A stretch of 54,612 bases of DNA, filler included, from Sphacelaria rigidula (GCA_964200075.2; 5 parts of 5 records of this genome joined end to end with filler, not necessarily neighbours in it); one strand, 5' to 3'; numbered from the whole stretch's first letter, positions 10,844 through 43,771 are shown. Program-made: numbers and translations. Notes: generated by a model not told the origin, from the letters alone.

Positions 10844-10943
10844 NNNNNNNNNNNNNNNNNNNNNNNNNNNNNNNNNNNNNNNNNNNNTTAATTAATTAAN
10901 NNNNNNNNNNNNNNNNNNNNNNNNNNNNNNNNNNNNNNNNNNN
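10844..10943. other. Artificial contig spacer N44-TTAATTAATTAA-N44
   Basis: Six-frame stop linker, identical to three others. Confidence 0.98.
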
Positions 10944-18242: not shown

Positions 18243-21200
18243 TCATGAGTCATCTGCATCCCAAGAGGGGCCCGTGTTCCGTAGAACGGCTGTTTCGAGT
18301 TCGCCATGGTCGTGTCGTTGGAGGCACCAGGATCCCCTCCGAGCAGTCGGCTCCTCGGCGTAGTACGCATCATCCAAGCGAATCTTAAGGGGGCTCGGGT
18401 CATCAAGGAAACGGATAAAGTAGGAGTGGTCAGATGCAGGATCGACCAAATGAATTTTACCCAACCACCACAGTGAATCCAAAGCCTTATACCAAAAATA
18501 CGCCCATTTCGGCAATCGTTTTCCGTGAGAACACTGCATGTATTGTGAACGCGAAATAAGGCTATATCCTGTCACAACAAACCGCGCTGAGTGTTCACGT
18601 GCCAGTTCTCGAGCGGCAGCTCCCTTGCGCATTGACCGATATCTCTTATTCAACGGGCGGTGTTGAACGGTATCTCCTACCCAGTACAGCAATATTTCCC
18701 GACGAAAATGACGAAAATCAACTTCACGCTCCCATGTAACACGCATGATACCCTTCCAATGTGTCTGATACATTACCGCCATCTTACCTCCACGACCACG
18801 AACCAGGTGATGACCCGAAATCCTATCTACCTCAACGCATTCCAGGGGTGCGTCCGCATCCTCGACCGTCATATGGTACGGCGGAGTCTTGATTGCATAC
18901 TTGGTCAACACATACTGGCTAAGTCCTACCGGCAGTTTTTTGGGCATGTCAGAGGAGGCATGAGGGGGAATAAACGGTTTGCATCGTAGCATCGAGATGC
19001 GATTTTTCGGTTTCAAGCCAGGTTCATCCGTGGGAAAATCTAAATAAAAAAGTTTCGCTCCCACCGGACTTTTGTCGGGTGCGGTAGCGCTCGGACCAAC
19101 AGCTAAAATTTCCCAAGGACCAGTCCAATTCAAGGATAGTTTCGCCTTTAACACTTCATCCAAAGATGATGATTTCGAGCTAGCCCCTTGATTGATGGTC
19201 TTCACATCGTTATACACCCATGCCCATTGGCCTACCTTCCACACCGGGCGGTTATGCACCACATAATCCACCATTGAGTTCGCCCTGGCCACCTTGTCCA
19301 AATTGATTTGGTTCTGTTCTCGTACCACTTCATATGCAAGACGAAGACGATTGCTAACCGACAAATGATACTCTGCAGCGTCACGATCGAGACTCTGATG
19401 TCCACCTGTATTTTTGCGTTCGAATACCGTTAAAGGTAACCGAGGCATGCGTCCAATATGACTTCCATTCGGCGACAATCCCGTAGCGGCATTGACTGAA
19501 TTGTTGTAGTTCATCTGGACAAGGGGCAGGTGCAGATCCCATTCCATCTGTATCTCATTCGCTACAGCAGCAAGCATCTGTGCCATCGTATGGTTCACTC
19601 GTTCCGTTCCACCAGTGGTGGAAGGGTGATATGAACCAGTAAAAATGCGATGGGCACCAAAAAGGTCACTGACGGCGGCAGAAAGTTTGCCTGAAAAATG
19701 CGGGCCGTTGTCAGATAATAAGCGTTTGGGCACACCCAACAGTGGGATGTACATGTAGACGAGAATGTTGGCGGTACCTTCCGCGGTATAACTACTGGGG
19801 GGGACGGCGTGCATCACCGCATGTCGACTAGATCTATCCGTAAACAACAAAATATACTTATTCCCACTATCCGTCAGGGGCAAAGGACCAAAATAGTCCT
19901 ACGAGACTACTTCACCAGGCCCGTTTGGGAGTGGCATGGAAACAATCGGCCAACGAACTGTTTGACGAGAAGTTTTTCGCGCCTGACACAAAAGACAACG
20001 CCTCACCCACCAACGACAACATTGATCCATACAAAATCCACCAATAAAAACGCTCCAACATCTGGGAGGTCCTAATGGCGCCTAAATGAGTCGATGCCTG
20101 TGAATGGCATTCGTGGAGGAACCATGGGCGCAGTAGCATCGGGACATAGATGCGGACGGGTTCATCACCTAGCAAGCGGGCATGTCGACTTGTAGGCTTC
20201 CCCCTGGGAAGGGCTGCTGTGGGCCGGCGAACCAACAGAACTATACCATCATCATCCGTGTGTAGCATACCTTTCCTTGAAAGTTCAGTAACTTTATCCT
20301 GGGCGGGCGCTTTGAGATTCCCGACTGGCAAAAGGAACTCAGTTTCTGAGAATGGGCATGGGCAACCTTTCGATAGATAATGGATAGCCGATTTACAAGC
20401 AGGTTCTGCCTGTTGTTCCCGGGCCCGATCGGCGTGGGAGAAGAGAGTCGAACGTTCCTTGAATACACCATCTGTTAAAGCGTATACTTCGTGTTGGGTC
20501 GGTTCGGGGCGGGGTTGGCACGAAGCGGTGATCTCGGAATCAAGGGTGAGCCTACCAGTTGGTGTACTCTCAGACGGAACGTTCACGTCTACTCCTGAAT
20601 CGATTAGCGTGGAGGGTGTTGTGGTGGTGTTTGCAATATCATCACCACTGGAGGGGGGCACAGCCGTGGTTTCGGTTATGGTTGGCAGGGGCGGCACGGT
20701 CGGGATCGATTTCCTGGGGGCCTTGCGTCGCGGAGGCTGTGGGAGCGCAAGGAAACTATCGGGGACCGGGGTGGGGGCAAGGAGGGGAAGGTCAGGACCA
20801 GATACGGCTAATTTGTCAGCAGAGGACGGTTCTACACCTGCTGCGAAAACCATGCGCTGGCCAGTTGCACAAAAATGATCATAGCCAACAGTATTTGTAG
20901 ACAGTCCATTCCAAACTAAGTACAAAGATTGAGGTTGCAAGCTGCCTAGGACTGATGCGTGGGCTGTGGTCGTCAGCCCACCCATGCCTAAAGCTGGCGT
21001 TTCTCTCAGTGAAAGTGGTGTGTAGAGACCTCTATGTCCATTCCTGCTTATGAAATATACAATGTCTTCGGTGGGATCGGTGATACGTCCCATGGCGGAT
21101 TCATCGATAGGATGAGCTGGTGTTGGCAAGCGTGACAGAAGGTCGGTGTTTGCATTCTGGGGACCTGTGCGGTACTTCAGTTGTAAGTTGTAAGACGAGA

Positions 21201-21786
21201 GGATTTCGAACCAGCGTTGGATCCTAGCATTGCGTTCCGCCATTTTGGCAAAGCTTTCCAAAGACTTGTGATCGGTATAAATCACAAACGGGATCATACA
21301 AATACTGACGCAGACGTCGCACGCCCCAAACAACTGCGCCGGCCTCTTGTTCCATGACAGACCAATTCTGTTCATTCGGAAAAGTGGTGCGACTCAGATG
21401 GACAATGGGGCGAACAGTAGCATCGACTTGCTCTTGTTCTAATGTGCAGCCAAACCCAATTTTGGAAGAATCTGTGTGGAACCGGAAAGGGCGGGACCCT
21501 GCTCCACGGCCGACCAGTCGGGGAAGAGGAGAATCGGCGGGCACGAAAGGGTGTCGAAGAGGCGGCGGACGGTTGTTGCCATTTCCAATGTGAACAAATT
21601 GCACCCCTTTTTTGAGGAGGGTGGTGAGGGGTTTTAGCTTTTGGGCAAGGTTTGGCAAGTACTGTCTGTAGTAGCTTAGACCTCCCAACAAGGAACGCAG
21701 TTGAGAAATGTCCCGTGGCATGGGCATATCGGAGAGTGCGGCGACCTTGTCGAGGTTTGGGCTACGACCTTCGGGGGTGATGCAAT
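18243..21786 (-). pseudogene. pol: Disrupted pol polyprotein (RT thumb/connection, RNase H, integrase, chromodomain, extra C-terminal domain)
   Basis: RT end: QLRSLLGGLSYYRQYLPNL. RNase H: FHTDSSKIGFGCTLEQ...NWSVMEQEAGAVVWGVRRLRQYL and YTDHKSL...RIQRW...ANTDLLSR. Integrase HHCC: ECH..THLG..RCLLC. D,D(35)E core: DYFGP, SDNG, TERVN. GPY/F-like LNWTGPWEI. Frameshifts near 21590, 21500, 21295 and 20035, and a TAG just before DYFG (about 19900). Confidence 0.9.
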
Positions 21787-21886
21787 NNNNNNNNNNNNNN
21801 NNNNNNNNNNNNNNNNNNNNNNNNNNNNNNTTAATTAATTAANNNNNNNNNNNNNNNNNNNNNNNNNNNNNNNNNNNNNNNNNNNN
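21787..21886. other. Artificial contig spacer
   Basis: N44-TTAATTAATTAA-N44. Confidence 0.98.
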
Positions 21887-32729: not shown

Positions 32730-32829
32730 NNNNNNNNNNNNNNNNNNNNNNNNNNNNNNNNNNNNNNNNNNNNTTAATTAATTAANNNNNNNNNNNNNNN
32801 NNNNNNNNNNNNNNNNNNNNNNNNNNNNN
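32730..32829. other. Artificial contig spacer
   Basis: N44-TTAATTAATTAA-N44. Confidence 0.98.
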
Positions 32830-33150
32830 CTTATGAGCCTCGTTTTTTGTGCAACCAAATACCCCCCCCCCCCTATCGTAGGATGACTCAGTAGCAGCAT
32901 ACCTACTTGATGTGTGACCGCAGTCTTTTGAGGGTTTGTTCTCTAACAAGCGCAAAAGCTCTGCTGTAAAAGGCGCGGGCCTTACACGTGTGTACATCGA
33001 ATATGCCTACATCACCACACAGTATTTCCGGCTTCAGACCCATCCTCTTCCCCCCTACAAAGACGCAGTCGTTTTCTCTTTCGATGAAAGGAATAAACCT
33101 TCTGAGTTTAGTCCATACTACTACCTTAGCTGACCCATCCACTTGGACAG

Positions 33151-36100
33151 GCGGGCTGACTCAAAGGCTGCGGACCCAGCTCAAGAGTCCACCGGTAGAA
33201 AGGCCGCCTCAGATTCTTTTCGATCTAGAGGAGGAAGCGGTATTGACAGCGATGCAGAAGGTGTTGAAGGCGCGAGAGGACGAGCTTCTCTCCGACGAAG
33301 ATCATCAGACGATGACGCCGCTGCGAAGCCTCCGAGGTGAGTGGTTTGAATACAGGGGGAGCTTGAAAGAATCGCACCAGTTGTTGCGATGTCTTATGCC
33401 CTACGATGTCCCTTTCACACGTCGGTGCCAGGGTAGAACGGGAGTTTGGCACGTGTGCACAGTCAGTTGGGCATCAGAAGCAATGTTATATAGGGGACGA
33501 AGAAAACGCACTCGCTTTCGTCGTCCAGGGATATTGGAATTCAACCACCTCCTGGCCCTCCCATTGTTGAATGACTAAGGCGGCGAACTGGCTCTCCTCC
33601 AATTTCCAGCACGAGAGCGGATATGGATCGCCGCGGAAACCTTGACTACAATGATAGGTGAGGGTTCTTCTGTTCATGGAAGTGTCAACAACTCTCCTTG
33701 TTTCTATGATGTGTGTGTCACTGCAGTGTCCGCGCATTTTTGTATTTCGTGCTATTTTGTGACAGCGTCGAACATTGTGATTTTCATTCGTGACCCATGG
33801 CTCTTTCAAGGTGTTACGTTCGTTGCCCAGCCAGTTTTACCGTTGTTGAACTGGTACGTCCACCTGCAGGGTTGGTGCTCAACCGGAAAGAGAAAGGGGT
33901 CGACTGTTCAAACAAAGCATCCGTTGTCCTCGAGCATGTTACGGGTAGGACTGTGAATATTTGTAACATCATTTCCCCACGCTACACGCTACATTAAGGT
34001 TGTCGGTCGTTTGAGATCTACGACGTTCACTCGGCCGAATGCGTCCGGTTTTTCTTGCGAACGTAGGCTACGCAACACGCATGGACAAGGTTGGAAAATA
34101 TAACTCCGTATCCATCCTTGAATTTATTGTCGATGTGGTACATCACCTACCTGCTGCCTGTAAAGGCTCAGATAGCTCACAATCAAACGCCATTTGTTTT
34201 TGTGTTCCTTACCAACAAGTACGTGAAAACCGAACACAATCGCAGATCTTCCGAAGCTTGCAAATTCCGTCTTGGTCAGAAGATAGAGGGACGTTATCGG
34301 GGAAAAGGCAGATGGTACAAGGGCCGCATCGTTGGCACCAACCCTGACGGTACCTACGACGTGCGATACGAGGACGGTGACGAGGACCTACGTCTGGAAA
34401 CATCCGCTCTGAAATCAGCGGACGATGAAAACACCTCTGAACCTCTCAATTCCCGCTACTCAGGCGGCGGCGGTCGCGTTGAGAGGGATGATGGCGGCGT
34501 GAGGGGAGTAAACAATAGTAGACGAGTGTCCCAAACCGTTCGGACCGGCGATGCGATCGAAGCTCGCTATAGGGGGGGCTCTAAGTGGTACGATGGTGTC
34601 GTGAAAAAAGCACATTCCGACGGAACGTTCGACATTAGGTACGTCGACGGGGATGAGGAAGGTGGGGTAGAAGCTCGCTTCGTGCGGTTGGCGGACGACG
34701 TTCATGATAAAACCGCTTCTGGTAATGCGGAGGCAAACGTGCATTCTCCGAGCAGGTCTCGGGGTCGCCGTGACCATGAAGGTGGCAACTATTGCGTCGG
34801 TGACAAAGTGGAAGCGAGATTCAACGGCCGAGCACGTTGGTTCAGCGCGACGGTGGAGCGAATTAACCACGACGGGACTTACCACCTTCTATACGTCGAT
34901 GGAGACGAGGAGCGGGCGGTTGGAAAAGACTTGATTCGCAGTAGGAACGGAAGCAGTACTAGTGCTACCGGTGCAGAGAGGGAAACGCGATCTGGCAGCC
35001 GTAGCCCCGGACGCAGGGTTATCTCGGGCGCCGGCGGGTCCGAATCAGATTTGTCGGTTGCACACACCACTTTTCGCGAAGGAGATAACGTCGAGGCAAG
35101 GTATAAGAGAGGGCGCAAGTGGTACCAGGGAGTTGTTCTAAAAATTGGTAGAGATGGGACGTGCGACATTCGTTACGATGACGGTGACATCGAGAACGCA
35201 GTCGATCCGGGACACGTACGGGCAGCTGGCGTCGGCAGCACCGAATCGTTAGCGTTGGCAGGGAGGGAACGCACGTCAAGGAGGACGGAGGAGAGTGACT
35301 ATGTTGATGGGGATAAGGTAGAAGCGAGGTTTGGGGGGAGATCTCGCTGGCTGAAGGCGACGGTTCAGCGAAAAAATCGGGACGGCACCTACCATCTCTT
35401 CTACGTAGATGGTGAAGAAGAAAGAGCGGTAGAAAAGGCGTTGATTCGAAGGGTTTCAGGAGTCAAACCGGAAGAACGAACAGGCTTGGACACCAGTAAT
35501 AAGAAGCATCGTGTCGGCGACGATATCGAGGCGAGATACAAACGAGGACGCAAGTGGTACCCAGGGGCCATTCGGACGGTCAATCGTGATGGTACTTATG
35601 ACATCCGATATAGTGATGGAGACACGGAGCGTGACGTCGAATCGGCTTTGGTGCGTAGTAAGGGGTCCACCACTCTTGATTATTTGGATTCAGGGGGCAG
35701 AGACGCAGCGAGAGTGAAGACCGGGTTCGACATTGGCGACAATGTCGAAGCAAGGTTCGGCGGTCGATCGCGCTGGTTCAAAGCTACCGTAGAGCGGGTG
35801 AATCGAGACGGGACTTATCACTTGTTGTATGTCGACGGGGACGAAGAGCGAGCGGTAGAGAAGGATTTGATCCGAAACGTGAGCGACGGCGGACCCGTCA
35901 GAAGTCCCACCGGTAGAACACGTGACGGCATGGCGGAGTCAGATTTAGATCGAAAGTATCGCGTCGGAGACGACATCGAGGCTAGGTACAGAAGGGGAAA
36001 AAAATGGTACCCCGGCGTGATTCGAGCGGTGAATCGGAACGGTACCTACAACGTTAGATACAAAGATGGCGACGAAGAAAGTGATGTAGAATCCTCATTC

Positions 36101-39100
36101 GTCAGACATACGGGCCGTGCCAGCGCTGACTCCTTGGCGTCTTCGACCGGGGTAGCAGTAGACGACAGCGCCCGCGATCGGGATTTCACCGCTGGGGCCA
36201 CAGTAGAGGCAAGGTATCGTGGGCGATCCCGCTGGCTGAAAGCTAGAATAGAGAGGAAGAACCGGGATGGGACATACTATCTTGTGTACGTCGACGGCGA
36301 CGAGGAGAGGGCGGTAGAGAAAGAGTTCATCCGTTTGCCGGCGGCGAAACGACCCAGTATTAGAGATGCCGCTCGACGGACTGCATCAGGTACAATGTCT
36401 ACTTTGGATACACTTCTCAGGGTCGGCGATACCATCGAGGCTCGGTACAAAAGAGGCTCAAAATGGTACCCGGGGGTTGTTCATGCGGCAAATCGAGGAG
36501 GTACGTATGACATCCGGTACAGTGGCGGAGATACGGAGTACGACGTTGATGCAAGCATGGTGAGGTCCGCGAGTGCGTTGACTCTGTCATCGACGGAGGC
36601 TGACGAAAAGTATGCGGACAACTACAGGGAGGGCGACAGCGTGGAGGCGAAGTTCGGGGGGCGGTCTCGATGGTATAAGGCCAAGGTATCGCGCAAGAAT
36701 CGCGACGGCACCTACCATCTCATCTATGCCGATGGTGACGAAGAGCGAGCAGTCGATAAGAGCCTAATACGCAGGATCGGAGCCGACCGAGCGCAGGATA
36801 TCAAAGGCAGCAGCAGCCGAACCGACGTCAACATGACGCCGAATATTGACAGCGGCGCGGAAAGCGGGCGCAGCAAAAAGCTACGCGTTGGTGCCGAAAT
36901 CGAAGCGAGATATAAAAAGGGTGGGAGATGGTATCCGGGTGTAATACGAGCCGTAAACCGCGACGGGACATACGATATACGGTACCAAGATGGTGGTGCT
37001 GAGCGGGATGTCGATCCGTCATTAGTGCGCAGCAAGGGCGGGCAAAGCCTAAGCTCTCTTGAATCCGCAGACAACGGTGAAGGGTTTCTTGAGGGAGATA
37101 AAGTAGAAGCGAGATTTGGTGGTCGATCGCGGTGGTTCAAGGCGACCATACAGCGCAAGAACAGGGATGGCACGTACTTCCTGAGATACATCGATGGGGA
37201 CGAAGAGAGGTCTGTCGAGAAGGATCTCATTCGCAGGATTGAACCGCCGTCCGGTGATCGGGTGGTACAAAGTAGAAGTCGGAGTCCAGGACGCCGCGTA
37301 GTGTCAGGAGCCGCATCGGACGCAGAGTCCACTGTCAAGTCGTACCTCGTCGGGGATGAAATAGAGGCTAGGTATAAGAGAGGTCGTAAGTGGTATCCAG
37401 GGACTATTCGTGGCGTCAACAGGGACGGTTCATACGATATACGGTACAACGATGGAGACACTGAAAGAGACGTCGATCCTGGACTCGTGCGAGGAATGGG
37501 CACAGTGAGCGCCAATTCGCTCGCCACCGCTTCAAGCACAGCCGGAGGAGGAGTAACACTACATAGCGACAGCAGCAGTTTCGGACCGGGTGATAAAGTG
37601 GAGGCGAGATTCGGCGGCCGATCTCGCTGGTTCAAGGCCACAGTCGAGAAGGAAAACCGCGACGGGACGTACCATCTGTTGTATGTCGACGGCGACGAAG
37701 AGAGAAAGGTGACGAAGGACCTTATTCGTAAGATCGACGGCGGCGGTTGTGACAGCGGCTCAAGATCTGGCAGTAAAAGTCCCGGGCGACGGGTGATATT
37801 AGAAGCCGCTGGTGATTCGGACGTGGACCGCTCTCGGAGAGCGTCGCTTCGAGTGGGGGACGAGGTCGAGGGAAGGCAAGGGCGGGGGCGCACGTGGGTT
37901 CCTGGACGAATTCGTGCGATCAACCATAACGGTACTTACGATGTTCGGTACGATGACGGGGATTTAGAGAAATCCGTGAATCCTGAATTAGTACGAGGAA
38001 GAGGTGCCGACTCACGTTTAGGGAGAGATGTAGAGAATCGGGCGGACTTCAAGGTAGGGGAAAGGGTTGAAGCGAGGTTTGGTGGACGTTCTCGTTGGTT
38101 TAAGGCTACGGTGGAACGGAGAAACCGCGACGGTACATTCCATCTTTTGTACATTGATGGCGACGAAGAAAGAACCGTGGAGAGGGATCTCATTCGTAAA
38201 CTGGAGCCGACCAGACTTACTCGGGGGAAAGCTGACAGCCTCGACTCACTTGCATCAGTCAATGACCCTGTCCGCTACCGTTCTGGAGATCGGGTGGAGG
38301 CGAGATTTGGTGGACGTTCACGATGGTTTAAGGCTATCGTTGAGCGAGAGAACCGCAACGGAACATACCACCTGCTCTATGATGACGGTGACGAGGAGCG
38401 AGAGGTCGATAAGGATCTTATTCGGGGGTTGGAAGATCAGGCTAGTAGATCGGGCGGAGCAAGCGGGGCGAGGAAACCGTCTCCATCTTCGGGAAATAGG
38501 GGTAGCGGTAGCAAGAGTAAGCTGTATCGGGTGGGAGATGACATCGAGGCTAGGTACAAAGGCGGACGCAAGTGGTTTCCAGGGGTCGTTCGGGGCGTTA
38601 ACGACGATGATACGTACGATATTCGTTACAACGACGGAGATTCGGAGCGCAACGTTGAGCGCGGACTTGTGCGCGCAGCTAACGGCGCCAGTGTCGACTT
38701 TCATTCGTCGGCCGTAGACGACGGCCTCGGCGAGTACGCGACAGGGGATCGGGTGGAAGCGAGATTTGGTGGCCGATCTCGATGGTTCAAAGCTACGGTT
38801 GAACGCAAGAACCGCGATGGTACGTACCACCTCGTGTATGCGGACGGAGATGAAGAAAGAAACGTCGAGAGTAGTCTTATCCGGAGGCGGGATGAAGGAG
38901 ATCAACCACGCAGTCGTAGCATCGGAAGACGGAAGAGTTCACCAGGGGGCGACTCGTCTGGGGAAGAGCGCGGTCGGAGTGCCACCGGACATGATGTCGA
39001 AGGACGATCACCGAGAATCGATAAAGCGCTGCTTGTAGGTGATAATGTTGAAGCCCGTTTCGCCGGCGGCGCGCGGTGGTTTCCTGGTAGAGTGGGTCGG

Positions 39101-42100
39101 ATTCATCGCGATGGATCCTACGATATTACGTACGCAGACGGCGAGAAAGAGACGTACGTACCGGGGAAGTTCGTGCGGCAAGTAGTCAGCAGGAGTAGCG
39201 ACAGCGGGGGTAGTGGCGACAACGCCCGCAGACCAGAACGTGGGGGTCACAACACGCATGAGAAAGAACGTGGACATCTGATAATCGCAGGTGATCCCGT
39301 GGAGGCTCGTCTTCGCGGGAGATCCACCTGGCACAGGGGTGAGGTCACTCGGGTGCATTCAGACGGCACGTACGACATCCGGTATCAAGACAGTGGCGAG
39401 CACGAGAAACGGGTTGACCCAGGCTTTGTACGGCATCTCTTAGCAGGCTCCCGGAGTCGCGGGGCTAGTCGCAGCAGACCACGGGACAGTGAGGGTGCAA
39501 GGGACAGCTCGATGAGTGAGAGCGATTGGCAAAGACGTGGACAACGAGGAAGGTCGAGAGAGAGACGACGAAGCAATCAGAACAATAGTAGCTGGTGGGA
39601 AGAAGATGCGAGAGCGGCGGCCGTTATTGTAGCGGCGGGTCTAAGGAAGGCAAGAAAAAGCCTGGACCACCTCACACGGAAGTTGGAACGACGGCGAGGA
39701 CTCGGTGCAATTGCTCGAGGAGTGGAGTGCGATTCCCTTGGCGCTGTACTCGCCGACCTCGGCGTGAATCTCAACTCGCGAGAGATGCGCGCTATTGCCC
39801 ATCATTGCCAAGATGAGGATCTCGTCGGATGTATAGATACCTCAGCTCTCGCCTCCCTGATAAAGGAGCGATGGACCGGAGATCGATCGGCGGCGAAGAG
39901 AGCCCGTTCGTCCCTACGTAAACCACACCAAGGGGGCGCGCGGTCGACTTCGGGACACTCCCGTGGATTGCCTGCCTCTGAAGGCCGGATCGACGGATCG
40001 GATGGCTCACGTACATCCTCCGCCAGGGATCGTCGGGGGACACGTAGTGGAACGAGCAGCAGAGGCCGTCGCCGTCACGGTTCGACCTCTTCGTCGGGTG
40101 GGGGAGGCAGCTGTAGCAGTGGTTCTGATCACCAGGTAAAATAGCACTGTCATTTGCGTCCGTGAGAGAATAAGGTCTGATGACATGTGAGACAGGAATA
40201 ATTCCTGTATCTGATGGAAAACAGCATTTTAATTTGCGTACAAGAATATGTATAACTCTACAATGCATTTGCACCTATCTTTTGATCGGAAACAGAGAGC
40301 TAGGAGAGTTAGCAGAAGAGATCAAAAGACGAAAGAGGGATTGAGGTCGACAGCGGCAGGCGGGAAACATAAGCGGGGTGCGGCGGTGACTACCAGTAGT
40401 GAGCGGGACGGAGGGGGTAGTAGGGATATGTTGTCGGAAGGAAGCGATGGAACAGACGGAGGTGGGGAGGGACTGCTCAACAAGATAGCTTTGAAGGCTC
40501 TGCGGAAGCTGGAAGGCCCCGCATTTGACGGGAGTCTGCGACAAGCGTTCAACGAGCAAGCAGGCGGTCGCGGACGAGCAGATGGCATGCTCTCGAGGTC
40601 TCACTTGAAAAGGTGAATTGCTCGTGCCTGAAAAGGGCATAGGGTTACTAAATTGGTAGGGTATAGCGTTCTATTACTTGCACTATTTCTTGCAACATAG
40701 AGTGGTGAAGTCACAGCATGATAGTAGCGGAATATTGCGTCTCCCATATGGTAACTCGTGGTGTGGCATATTCAACGTATTACACACATTGTTTGATAAG
40801 CCAGTGCAGTTGTTTCCCTTGATACCGTGGGCCCTTTCGGCTGTTGTGGTTAGAGCGGTCCGCAAAAGCCACGAGCATGGGCGCCATATAGCAACTATTA
40901 TAACATGTCTACCATCTCGTGCCTTACAACCTCCAGCATTGTCATGTATCAATTCTTTTTTTTCCGAAAGGCTGCTGCGAAACTTGAGGATAACACCTGA
41001 CACGCCGGCAGTAGATGGGATCATGGCGTTGCTGGATTGTGATGGTGTTGGGACTTGCGGGTTAAGCGCGTTGATGGAGGCGGCGTTATGTCACCCCGAG
41101 GAGGAGGAGGTAAGGTCTATTCCGCAGGTCAGAGGTTTCGCTTGCATTTGTCCCGAGGTTCTCGATTTGTAAATCTGCGTCCGATTTATTTTCCCACTGT
41201 CGGACGGGAAGTCCTTTTCAAGTCCTCAGTCATGGTTCATTCATGTCGATATTTTAGGCATTTCCAGTTTCGCGCGATCCAAAAAATACGTCCATACTTT
41301 TACGAAAAATCAAGTGAAGCTGTGACAATAAAATGGGCCCTGGACGCAAGCCCGTGGAAGATTACCCTTTCTATAGGCTAGTGTCCATGGTATCACTTTG
41401 GTCGGTCGCCGTCTGAGGCTACATAGTAAATTAAACTACCAGGTTACCTGCGTGCGTCATTGTCTAACTGATATCACTGAAAATTTGACTCACCTAGTAT
41501 GCAAGTCCTGGGTACGTGTCTTGCTTCAAATCCGGGACTCTGTGGAGTATGTCACTATTGAAAGTTAGGTCATGATGTTGATTCAAAGTAGTGTTTGACG
41601 AAGACAACATTCAGTAGTAACAAACACAGTATGGAAGTTGTGTTGCTCTACATGCACTGCGCATAGCAGGCTATAACCCTCCTATCAGCTACATTTCTTA
41701 TAATCGAATACCTGCACGACAATTGCACGAGCCATAGTGATTTCGGAACAGTCCCAGCGTGAGCGAGGCGAGCAATGCAGGTATAAAGCGATATTACTTG
41801 AAAGCCGCTCTGCTGATATGCTGGGTGCGAGAAAACAGATTCTGCCGGTACAACTCGTCGCTAGCATCCAGAAAACAAACTTCTACTAGAAACAGAAATC
41901 TACACAGGTGGCCACTGGGGTGCCTGTAACCTCAAATTTGGACGTTACAGACCTTGTGCAACGTCTGTAACGTCCATATTTGAGGTTGCAGGCACCCCAG
42001 TGGCCACCCGTGTAGCCAAACCAGCACGTCATCTCTGTGTCGACAATGTCTCGTAGTTTACCCCGTTCGTTGTTCCATCTTCGTTTCTTCATCTCCTCCT

Positions 42101-43259
42101 CTTCCTCGACTCTCTTTTTGTGCGTGCGTTTCCTTTTTGTTTACCTTGGATGCGTCTGTTATGTGACCACGGCTAGATCCCTCCAGGATCAGTCAATGTG
42201 CGATATTCAACCAATCAATCACCGTTCAACTCTAGGAGCAACCGTATGCAGAAACCAATATACAAAGTGGCGCATTAGCATGCATGGACTCAAATAGACT
42301 CATGCGCGGCCACAGGGTGAAATGTATGTGAAGAGACGGTGTGAAGAGAGACGAAACAAATCGGCGAGGAGAATCACGTGATCGTGCGGGCGTTCGAAAA
42401 CCGAATGTTAGCCTCATCTACGAGGGCACCCTGGTAAGGCTGTGGCAGCCTTTTCCCGGGAATCGCATTCCACTGTCACTCAAGAAACAAGCCCTTCCTT
42501 AGCTTTCTCTATGTTTGTGTGAACAGTAAGACGGCGATATGTTGTGGTAGGTTATATCATCTGCTGGAATGTTGCACGCCACAGGATTCGCTGAGCGTGC
42601 GAAGCTAACGCGCAGAGTGAGGCTGACTGCCATGGCTTCGGGTCTCGCACGGAGAGTTTCGATTTGGGGAAACCCGCCTGCCCAATGCAGTGCAGAAACT
42701 CTCGCGATTCGGGCAAGATGTGTACCTGCCACTAGCCGGTGATTGATACATCTACAGCGTACGAACCCTTCGTTGGCACGTGCCGTGGGTTTAAAGTATA
42801 CGATCGCGTGCTCCTAGTAGTCGACGGAAGCATATTTTCCGGTTGAATCGAGTACAGAATACCCAAGCACACCTATCCCCTCCTCACCTCTCTAGCCACG
42901 TTTGGCGGAGTAGGAATGGGAGACTAGCCGTCAGTGATCCGTTCTCTCGAGGATATGCTGTCGATAGTCTCAAAAGCTACAGTAAGCAAAACATCAGTAC
43001 CCCCATCCCCTCCCGTACACTCCCTCGCTCGTACTGTTCCTCTGTCAACCAATGGGGGTTACGGCGTTCTCTCCACCTGCAGCTAGCGAAGATCCACGCC
43101 AGCATTCGTGTGAAGATCTTTGAGCCCATCGGCCGCGACGATAAGAAGAAAAATAGCAAGCAGGCGACAGCAGCTTGCAGTGTTGTCGCTAAGACGCTAG
43201 CTAAGATGGACCATCCCCGAGGCTCGGGTTTGCTTCGAATGGGAGAATTGAAGAAGCTC
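33151..43259 (+). CDS. Giant tandem Tudor/Agenet-like repeat protein (22 repeats) with C-terminal degenerate EF-hand-like pairs; partial gene, both ends outside the contig
   Basis: Phase-consistent exon chain read from the sequence: 33151-33336 (acttggacAG|...ag|GTGAGT), 34246-40135 (tcgcAG|...cag|GTAAAA), 40296-40612 (...ag|GTGAAT), 40971-41109 (ttttccgaaAG|...gag|GTAAGG), 43083-43259 (ctgcAG|...ctc|GTAAGT). Total 6709 nt, about 2236 codons. Repeats of the form (F/Y)xVGDxVEARx5-6W(F/Y)x(A/G)x(V/I)xxxNxDGTYxxxYxDGDxExxV fit the LBR/53BP1/PHF20-type Tudor (Agenet) barrel pattern. Confidence 0.85.
34246..40135 (+). CDS. 5890-bp internal exon carrying all 22 Tudor-like repeats (about 34262-39433) and a first EF-hand-like segment (about 39595-39870)
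   Basis: Stop-free frame within ORF 34091-40144, bounded by a CAG acceptor (34243-45) and a GT donor (40136). Both splice phases match the neighbouring exons. Confidence 0.9.
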
Positions 43260-43671
43260 GTAAGTCTGAAGCCCTGCTTGGCAGATGTAACGGGTCGAAT
43301 AACTTCCGGTAACAATGGTTTGCTTCTCTTGTGATGAGATATAGGCACTCTGCTTTTTTTTATCAACGAGGCCCGTGTAGTGTTCTCCATTTGCTGCGCA
43401 GTACGTAGGATCTCGAAGATAACCGCGCAAATGTAGCAGGGTCATATCGACACCTGTGTTGAGGCTGATGAAATGGGGAGATATCCCCGAAATACCGTCT
43501 GGACCAGTACCAGCAGTATCCTATGCCTAGCATACGCACCAGAGTTTCGCATACTCCATAGATCCGAGCAGGATCGATCCTCACAAATTGATGCCGTGAT
43601 AGCCCCCCCCCCCCCCCGTCTAGCACCTTGTCTATCTGTGTCTGTAGTCCTTCTGGTGTTCCTGAAATCCC

Positions 43672-43771
43672 NNNNNNNNNNNNNNNNNNNNNNNNNNNNN
43701 NNNNNNNNNNNNNNNTTAATTAATTAANNNNNNNNNNNNNNNNNNNNNNNNNNNNNNNNNNNNNNNNNNNN
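43672..43771. other. Artificial contig spacer
   Basis: N44-TTAATTAATTAA-N44. Confidence 0.98.

Follow-up and report, generated by a model that had tools for sequence, protein, structure and literature searches.

A long array of Tudor/Agenet-like units of two alternating types in a brown-algal protein

The germ-granule scaffolds Drosophila Tudor and mammalian TDRD are multivalent for methylated partners and read symmetric dimethyl-arginine through extended Tudor domains of ~180 amino acids (aa) that include an SN-like part; Drosophila Tudor itself has 11 domains. SGF29, which like 53BP1 and PHF20/PHF20L1 carries one or two closely packed barrels, binds H3K4me2/3. Here, we describe a gene on the plus strand of a 54,612-nucleotide stretch of DNA from Sphacelaria rigidula (GCA_964200075.2; hereafter, the window), one long exon of which encodes 22 Tudor/Agenet-like units of two types, A and B, in a largely alternating order that is conserved in brown algae. 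Like these scaffolds, the encoded protein has many Tudor domains on one chain. Its units are not extended Tudors, however: they are ~50 aa long, lie between low-complexity linkers and match the TUDOR family (PF00567) at profile positions 49-102 of 121 only. The best solved-structure matches by sequence are 53BP1, PHF20/PHF20L1 and SGF29, at weak E-values (1e-3 to 1e-6), but unlike these proteins the window protein holds 22 units, with basic loops, on long linkers.

Tandem Tudor arrays have been described as a distinctive feature of stramenopiles, with a proposed role in ribonucleoprotein (RNP) assembly via dimethyl-arginine recognition (Iyer et al. 2011; PMC3239186; this and the other papers cited here were consulted in part). 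This was the sole paper on such arrays found in our literature search, and no study was found for Tudor with Phytophthora and PUB. The arrays of Iyer et al. comprise 1-22 units after a deaminase and a SAM domain, with 23 in an Ectocarpus protein (PMC3239186). The window protein (P0001) resembles them as a tandem series of related small Tudors and matches three of them, P0044, P0040 and P0025, directly. It differs from the deaminase-SAM-Tudor proteins in that neither a deaminase nor a SAM domain was detected in it by Pfam or upstream of it, the 5' end of the gene not being settled, and in that its tail is EF-hand-like; PMC3239186 mentions EF-hands 0 times. Five relatives (P0025, P0040, P0045, P0048 and P0049) are named "cytidine deaminase" by their sources, and on Tudor arrays that have no deaminase this name was probably carried over from the fused form. 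We rejected the label as a description of the window gene; P0001 has no deaminase Pfam match.

Some other stramenopile arrays, including oomycete ones (e.g., a Phytophthora "EF-hand domain-containing protein"), share the unit family and C-terminal EF-hand-type modules with the window protein. Unlike it, oomycete units are all B-like and aperiodic (neighbor and lag-2 identity both ~0.5), and oomycete-type arrays carry a PUB domain (P0055, 2e-22), of which none was seen in the window protein. Large Tudor arrays are thus known from stramenopiles, while the conserved two-type alternation and the linker motifs described below appear to be new: the text of PMC3239186 consulted refers to no two alternating types, saturated age or linker motifs. 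Our correction of the deposited gene model is new. An earlier note on this DNA had not recognized the protein as a characterized one, and we found no experimental study of it; its class, however, has been described, and orthologues of the same architecture exist, unnamed or annotated "conserved unknown".

The array and its units

A single frame without stops runs through 34091-40144 (+; 2017 aa). An anchor-motif scan of this frame placed 22 units at aa 60-1783 (34268-39439), in the 5'-to-3' order B B A B A B A B A B A B A B A B A A B A B B'. The earlier note had drawn the same number and order at 34262-39433, and its coordinates lie within 6 bases of ours. In the list that follows, coordinates are those of the scan, types come also from a maximum-likelihood (ML) tree of the 22 units, and "pocket aromatics" are residues at pocket positions, including unit positions 8 and 15.

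34268-34423, +, unit 1, divergent B-like; pocket aromatics present
34541-34696, +, unit 2, divergent B-like
34793-34948, +, unit 3, type A; removed as intron in the NCBI model
35075-35230, +, unit 4, type B; removed as intron in the NCBI model
35303-35458, +, unit 5, type A
35510-35665, +, unit 6, type B
35729-35884, +, unit 7, type A
35960-36115, +, unit 8, type B; removed as intron in the NCBI model
36188-36343, +, unit 9, type A
36419-36574, +, unit 10, type B
36626-36781, +, unit 11, type A
36884-37039, +, unit 12, type B
37088-37243, +, unit 13, type A
37346-37501, +, unit 14, type B
37583-37738, +, unit 15, type A
37850-38005, +, unit 16, type B; pocket aromatics replaced (Q at 8, V at 15), likewise in the orthologue P0003
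38051-38206, +, unit 17, type A; removed as intron in the NCBI model
38279-38434, +, unit 18, type A; forms with unit 17 a conserved A-A junction
38528-38683, +, unit 19, type B
38738-38893, +, unit 20, type A
39032-39187, +, unit 21, divergent B-like
39284-39439, +, unit 22 (B'); no pocket aromatics at 8 and 15, as in most orthologues

Sequence comparison supports the Tudor/Agenet-like identity that the earlier note had proposed for these units. Searched against Pfam, the whole protein matched Agenet at 3.3e-78 (258.5 bits against a 27-bit cut-off, in 18 stretches) and, also above the cut-offs, SGF29_Tudor (5.5e-54), Tudor_3 (5.2e-37), Tudor_5 (1.6e-24) and TUDOR (9.1e-20). Searched singly, all ten A units and all eight core B units matched Agenet at E<=0.01; the B units also matched Tudor_3 and Tudor_5 (7 of 8 each), while the A units were mostly without these matches. 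Against the PDB, a profile of the A units matched the Tudor domain of PHF20L1 (6.3e-5), PHF20 (1e-3 to 8e-3) and SGF29 (3.2e-3), and a profile of the B units matched SGF29 (7e-6) and PHF20/PHF20L1 (~4e-4). Designed "Cake" and "Scone" propellers topped the list for the B profile and were rejected, their score being the sum of many 20-residue, ~3-bit matches.

Unit 3 gave a gapless 52-residue alignment with Tudor 1 of 53BP1 (E 0.0022). In this alignment, unit positions 8, 15, 32, 34 and 36 fall on W1495, Y1502, F1519, D1521 and Y1523 of 53BP1 (counted from W1495), the residues that form its H4K20me2 cage (PMC5974088). The units carry F/Y, F/Y, Y, D and D at these positions, that is, three aromatics and two acids, and four of the five cage positions retain their chemical type, Asp included. 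Among 2076 units from 275 other family proteins, positions 8, 15 and 32 were aromatic in 95%, 89% and 99%, position 34 was D in 94% and position 36 was acidic in 93%. The pocket aromatics are present in 20 of the 22 window units, the exceptions being units 16 and 22. In a comparison of 11 species, the pocket residues are mostly retained at ancestral positions 1 and 3-21, and the aromatics at 8 and 15 are lost in all or most species at two positions: the last unit and an additional cage-less unit that orthologues have between units 1 and 2 and that is not present in the window.

The sequence data confirm the two classes of unit reported by the earlier note. Mean identity between unit cores (47 aa) was 0.78 for A-A (45 pairs), 0.53 for B-B (66 pairs) and 0.43 for A-B (120 pairs). 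The ML tree of all 22 units set the ten A units apart from the rest across a branch supported at 98/96, which none of 500 label shuffles equaled; the eight core B units grouped together at 80/87, and units 1, 2, 21 and 22 were long divergent branches. When 11 species were concatenated by position, the A/B split was supported at 100/100 and the history within each type was star-like. The two types are plainly homologous by sequence, as hhalign aligned A with B without a gap at a probability of 99.3% and 41% identity. Their alternation is non-random: within units 3-20, unlike types meet at 16 of 17 junctions, a figure equaled by 9 of the 43758 arrangements of 10 A and 8 B.

Judged by its sequence, B is near the general type of the family and A is the derived type. 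Position 17 is Ala in A and Gly in 92% of the wider family, position 29 is His in A and Asp in 80% of the family, and position 33, which immediately precedes the cage Asp, is Ala or Val in A and an acid (D/E) in 85% of the family. At the pocket position 8, across the 11 species, F is found nearly always in A and Y nearly always in B. A larger tree comprised 188 units, taken from the window and 11 relatives. Its smallest group that included all ten window A units had 33 members (support by the approximate likelihood-ratio test SH-aLRT, 80): the A units of the window, of P0011, of P0031 and of the Ectocarpus orthologue, and a single stray unit, with no unit from Tribonema, Aureococcus, Phytophthora or Chrysoparadoxa.

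Conservation, linkers and age of the two-type order

Searching proteins of similar length, we obtained 94 matches, which together with the window's own protein made 95 for classification. The run A B A B A B A B A B A B A B A A B A is held by 20 of the 95, the window's protein and a 99% copy included, so its A-A irregularity is kept in 18 proteins beyond these two. By its sequence, the gene occurs throughout brown algae. The Ectocarpus orthologue is CBJ31683.1 / D7FUN9, and period-2 similarity (~0.45 at lag 1, ~0.63 at lag 2) typifies the orthologue group, which includes Ectocarpus, Laminaria, Hapterophycus and Choristocarpus. Units also correspond by position: all 18 core units have a positional counterpart in P0003, 14 of 22 units do in P0006, and 4-9 of 18 do in nine more distant orthologues (chance, ~2).

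The order seems to be very old. In fragments from Discosporangium mesarthrocarpum, the A units share 42 of 47 residues with the A consensus, and the same linker motifs are present. The Discosporangiales have been described as the first branch of the brown algae (Phaeoexplorer preprint), whereas NCBI taxonomy places Discosporangium within the Sphacelariales. In the outgroup Chrysoparadoxa australica, we found five intermediate units, the first half of which alternates between A-like and B-like while the third strand is B-like in all, and proto-forms of both linker motifs. This proto-pattern suggests that the two-unit super-repeat predates the brown algae, which originated >450 million years ago (PMC12477816), and that type A was completed on the brown-algal stem.

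The linkers of the array amount to 685 aa of low-complexity, S/R/G-rich sequence with many RS and RG dipeptides, and measure 20-51 aa in the window and 14-67 aa across the 11 species. Across these species, those leading from B to A are shorter and less variable in length (mean 23.5 aa, SD 2.8, range 14-33 aa) than those leading from A to B (mean 34.9 aa, SD 4.9, range 18-47 aa), with Mann-Whitney p values of 0.0003 for length and 0.025 for the standard deviation (SD). Both kinds carry motifs that are conserved by position across the 11 species: SPGRRV.SG on A-to-B linkers, and an S.[DE]SL.S-type motif (S..SL.S) after most B units. The motif copies are as follows.

35003-35017, +, SPGRR core of the A-to-B motif, after unit 3; SPGRR in 10 of 11 species
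37283-37297, +, SPGRR core, after unit 13; 9 of 11 species
37778-37792, +, SPGRR core, after unit 15; 7 of 11 species
36122-36142, +, post-B motif of S..SL.S type, after unit 8
35237-35251, 37046-37066 and 37508-37528, +, further copies of the post-B motif
38237-38257, +, post-B-type motif within the linker from A17 to A18

SPGRRV.SG includes an SP site and an RR.S site, both of which may be kinase-type sites. The post-B-type motif in the A17-to-A18 linker may be what is left of a B barrel that was lost before the brown algae diversified.

Third codon positions differ widely between units while the residues are kept, as the earlier note had remarked, and at silent sites this divergence is complete. 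The proportion of synonymous differences was 0.83-0.84 in A-A, B-B and A-B pairs alike, against 0.84-0.92 when codons were redrawn at random from the gene's own usage, and silent sites are therefore saturated. At the same time, nonsynonymous divergence (dN) was 0.15 within A and 0.28 within B, and the ratio of nonsynonymous to synonymous proportions (pN/pS) was 0.17 for A-A pairs. DNA identity to a reference copy was 65-74% for A copies and 61-72% for B copies by a repeat finder, and Tandem Repeats Finder detected no array in the DNA, as expected of copies this old. These data support an array that is old and under purifying selection; the earlier note had likewise thought it old and selected, and the positional orthology and the Discosporangium A units agree with this. 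A non-functional gene or an inert structural spacer is very improbable, given the 2017-codon frame without stops, the saturated synonymous sites beside an A-A dN of 0.15 and pN/pS of 0.17, and the conservation of unit order and linker motifs across brown algae. Nor is the array an assembly artefact or mis-join, as run X1, which may be the window's own sample, yields a 9062-letter Logan contig that covers 32870-41931 across the array with 0 differences and even depth.

Relatives of the units extend well beyond brown algae. When 1.84 billion proteins were searched with the A profile, 3786 representatives matched at E<=0.001, of which 358 reached E<=1e-30. Named relatives come from brown algae, Tribonema, Phaeothamnion, Chrysoparadoxa, pelagophytes, Pinguiococcus and Parmales, and from a chrysophyte, the diatom Chaetoceros, labyrinthulids and oomycetes. 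One relative, P0225, has 35 units in 7637 aa and a lag-2 identity of 0.87, the mark of a young repeat. Independent super-repeats of period 2, 3 or 4 occur in P0225, P0261, P0262, P0072, P0007, P0039 and P0044, and P0072 contains true pairs with a constant 12-aa linker; other family members are homogeneous arrays, and oomycete arrays have no periodicity. Partner domains across the family are EF-hands (the commonest), SAM, PUB, ankyrin, kinesin, WD40, IQ, WW and Arf, and Tudor domains have been reported on Arl13 proteins of two stramenopiles (PMC8358228).

Gene model, downstream exons and the rest of the window

The gene lies on a contig of 10842 bases (32830-43671). N runs at 10844-10943, 21787-21886, 32730-32829 and 43672-43771 consist of TTAATTAATTAA flanked by two 44-N blocks. 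These are artificial spacers, and the window is therefore a chain of separate contigs, in which genes across a spacer are not necessarily genomic neighbors.

At NCBI, the protein is deposited as CAM9486376.1 ("unnamed protein product, partial [Sphacelaria rigidula]"), which is identical to the window frame letter for letter in four pieces. This model drops aa 217-400, 616-678 and 1309-1381 (34739-35290, 35936-36124 and 38015-38233) and thereby holds 18 units where the DNA has 22. The three dropped segments have lengths that are multiples of three, are free of stops and have GT..AG ends; they contain units 3, 4, 8 and 17, each with a positional counterpart in P0003 (82% identical). Because the segments are in frame, stop-free and filled with units matched by position in P0003, we regard them as mispredicted introns, although optional in-frame splicing may be an alternative. 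Models from Ectocarpus and Laminaria, with 16-18 units, may share this problem.

The downstream part of the gene was modeled from homologue alignment and canonical splice sites, with the following result.

34091-40112, +, large intron-free exon with all 22 units and a 224-aa tail; donor GT at 40113
39440-40112, +, tail of the large exon: an S/R-rich stretch, then a helix-loop-helix-like region
40113-40359, +, intron 1, GT..AG
40360-40612, +, exon 2, kept in orthologues
40613-40970, +, intron 2
40971-41109, +, exon 3, EF-hand-like, loop degenerate
41110-43082, +, intron 3
43083-43259, +, exon 4, aligned to the start of the EF-hand_7 match in Ectocarpus orthologues
43260, +, next donor GT

With a donor at 43260 and the contig ending at 43671, the 3' part of the gene is missing. 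Upstream, the frame is open from 34091 and the first in-frame ATG, a candidate start, is at 34133; several orthologues have an ATG 10-30 codons ahead of unit 1. No upstream homologous exon was found when 93 homologues were compared with the window by tblastn, which gave 34 matches outside the array and 0 upstream. The exon at 34091-40112 is intron-free over ~6 kb, and ~18 orthologues likewise have one long open frame; brown algae have been described as intron-rich (Phaeoexplorer preprint).

The C-terminal exons appear EF-hand-like by comparison with orthologues. The tail and exons 2-4 of the window matched no Pfam family, EF-hand families included, and no solved structure in the PDB; a canonical pair would lie past the contig end. 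In Ectocarpus orthologues, EF-hand_7 matched at 2.3e-6 and 5.3e-5, both under the cut-off, and a clear EF-hand pair (7.7e-25) lies further along the Hapterophycus protein P0038. Protein-atlas features pointed to EF-hand clusters with a score of 0.90, which we take as a lead only. A search of the tail among shorter proteins returned just fragments of the same gene group.

Intron 3 contains a 116-nt palindromic element (41900-42015) with 57-nt arms that are 93% complementary. Its word depth in run X1 was ~48,000, against ~65 in the flanks, and it looks like a very high-copy repeat similar to a miniature inverted-repeat transposable element. At the contig ends (32830-32890 and 43619-43671), depth in the same run reached ~185,000. 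No Rfam family was found on the contig 32830-43671. The sequencing runs matched to the window behave as DNA contigs, and X5, which we guessed to be RNA, touches high-copy repeats only. On another contig, two long open reading frames at 18243-21375 (-) have weak matches to rve (4.7e-4), RT_RNaseH (1.6e-6) and Integrase_H2C2 (3.2e-4), and the region looks like a decayed long-terminal-repeat retroelement.

Proposed function and its alternatives

We propose that this protein is a regulated, multivalent reader of methyl marks with two reader types, a proposal that we consider evenly balanced between right and wrong. From sequence, we infer its fold, its ligand, the two specificities, their regulation and the cellular place of action. 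The ~6-kb exon would encode 22 minimal Tudor/Agenet-type barrels on flexible S/R/G-rich linkers, a beads-on-a-string reader or scaffold in which each barrel would have a 53BP1/PHF20-like pocket suited to low-state methyl-lysine or methylated arginine. As A and B differ at and beside this pocket, they would probably read two different marks or sequence contexts. With ~20 pockets per chain, the protein could gain avidity for a repeated or clustered ligand, for example chromatin that carries the marks or an RNP or protein assembly that is methylated, and the phosphorylation-type motifs of the linkers and the Ca-binding-type tail would tune binding. The neighbors of the units by sequence read lysines of low methylation state. 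PHF20L1 offers a parallel for the pocket, as it binds mono- and dimethyl-lysine and its acidic cage residues tune the choice of methyl state (PMC13285377).

Several observations weigh against this proposal. The fifth cage residue of 53BP1, Y1523, is Asp in the units, and the loops between strands beta1 and beta2, GGRSR in A and KRGRK in B, are strongly basic; this Asp and these loops would repel a basic histone tail and suit a nucleic-acid or phospho-ligand equally well, and the conserved aromatics may be partly structural. Single units score ~20 bits against Agenet, under the Pfam cut-off of 27 bits, and no curated family therefore fits a lone unit. The EF-hand-like loops of the window have no canonical Ca ligands by eye and no Pfam match. 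The binding of the PHF20L1 tandem Tudors to DNA is strong, and on nucleosomes their methyl selectivity is lost (PMC13285377). Finally, literature searches by accession and topic found no experimental work on the ligand, localization or expression of the protein or its orthologues, supplementary tables aside.

The alternation itself admits two other explanations. According to the first, put forward in the earlier note, unlike barrels pack into a heterotypic tandem-Tudor pair. The register would then be a B followed by an A, which would give about nine two-barrel modules separated by long regulatory linkers. The B-to-A linkers are indeed the shorter and steadier ones and carry the conserved S..SL.S-type motif; nearly every residue of A is conserved, likely surface residues included; true pairs exist in P0072; and among the solved relatives, 53BP1 and SGF29 have tandem Tudors. 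Even so, a B is still separated from the A after it by low-complexity sequence of 14-33 aa, more than the 12 aa of P0072, and the A17-A18 junction kept in 20 of the 95 proteins indicates that an A can do without an adjoining B. The tandem profiles of Pfam favored neither register, as SGF29_Tudor spanned both barrels in one of eight B-A pairs and none of eight A-B pairs, and DUF4537 did so in two of eight pairs of either register. The distance matrices of A and B were uncorrelated in either register (Mantel r -0.25, p 0.76, and -0.08, p 0.57) and so gave no signal of co-duplication, in a test of low power because the tree within each type is star-like. We consider packed B-A pairs possible but doubtful.

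According to the second, alternation mainly keeps neighboring units unlike one another and so avoids misfolding or domain swapping, a principle stated in PMC4660218, rather than serving two specificities. Adjacent units are 0.43-0.47 identical, against 0.78 for units of the same type, and super-repeats of period 2, 3 and 4 arose several times in the family. However, P0005, P0040 and P0226 have neighbors that are 0.8-0.9 identical, and the changes specific to A fall at family-conserved positions next to the pocket and are nearly constant from Discosporangium to Sphacelaria, which exceeds what mere dissimilarity needs. We think a mainly anti-misfolding role unlikely.

The choice of ligand is a separate question. 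The barrels might bind RNA or nucleosomal DNA through their basic loops and organize RNA or chromatin without being primarily methyl readers. Besides the loops GGRSR and KRGRK, the array has an isoelectric point of 9.2 and RS/RG-rich linkers, and there are precedents in the high affinity of the PHF20L1 tandem Tudors for DNA on nucleosomes (PMC13285377), in the tandem Tudor of Rad9, which recognizes DNA according to the title of PMC2034471, and in the RNP-assembly role proposed for stramenopile arrays (PMC3239186). The DNA binding of PHF20L1 and the basic loops keep this alternative alive. Against it, the best-conserved positions across the family are those aligned with the pocket (Y32, 99% aromatic; D34, 94%), the basic loops being less so, and the unit cores are near neutral, with a net charge of -2 to +3. 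Primary binding to nucleic acid strikes us as distinctly unlikely.

The methyl-mark reader that we propose can be taken one step further, in a version that we hold to be a long shot. Here, A and B would be two specificities kept in strict alternation since before the diversification of brown algae; the protein would read a two-mark pattern, bridge or condense its substrate by avidity and be switched by Ca and by phosphorylation of its linkers, making it a stramenopile-specific organizer of heterochromatin or condensates. One speculative example of a two-mark substrate is a nucleosome array with H4K20 and H3K79 methylation. In Ectocarpus, H4K20me3 and H3K79me2 cover transposon-rich domains (PMC7784034).

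The loss of four units from CAM9486376.1 to three in-frame "introns" implies that similar repeat-rich genes are probably under-counted in brown-algal annotations. Beyond annotation, about 20 reader barrels per chain would be a valency far above that of the Tudor scaffolds studied so far, and the design can be dated, with two types, a fixed order and a type A that is nearly unchanged across the deepest split of the brown algae. If the two types read different marks, the protein would be a natural two-color multivalent reader and a model for avidity and pattern reading; if it is also the two-mark organizer outlined above, its design would have no counterpart in animals or plants. The gene may thus offer a lead into how chromatin or RNPs are organized in a lineage that evolved complex multicellularity independently.

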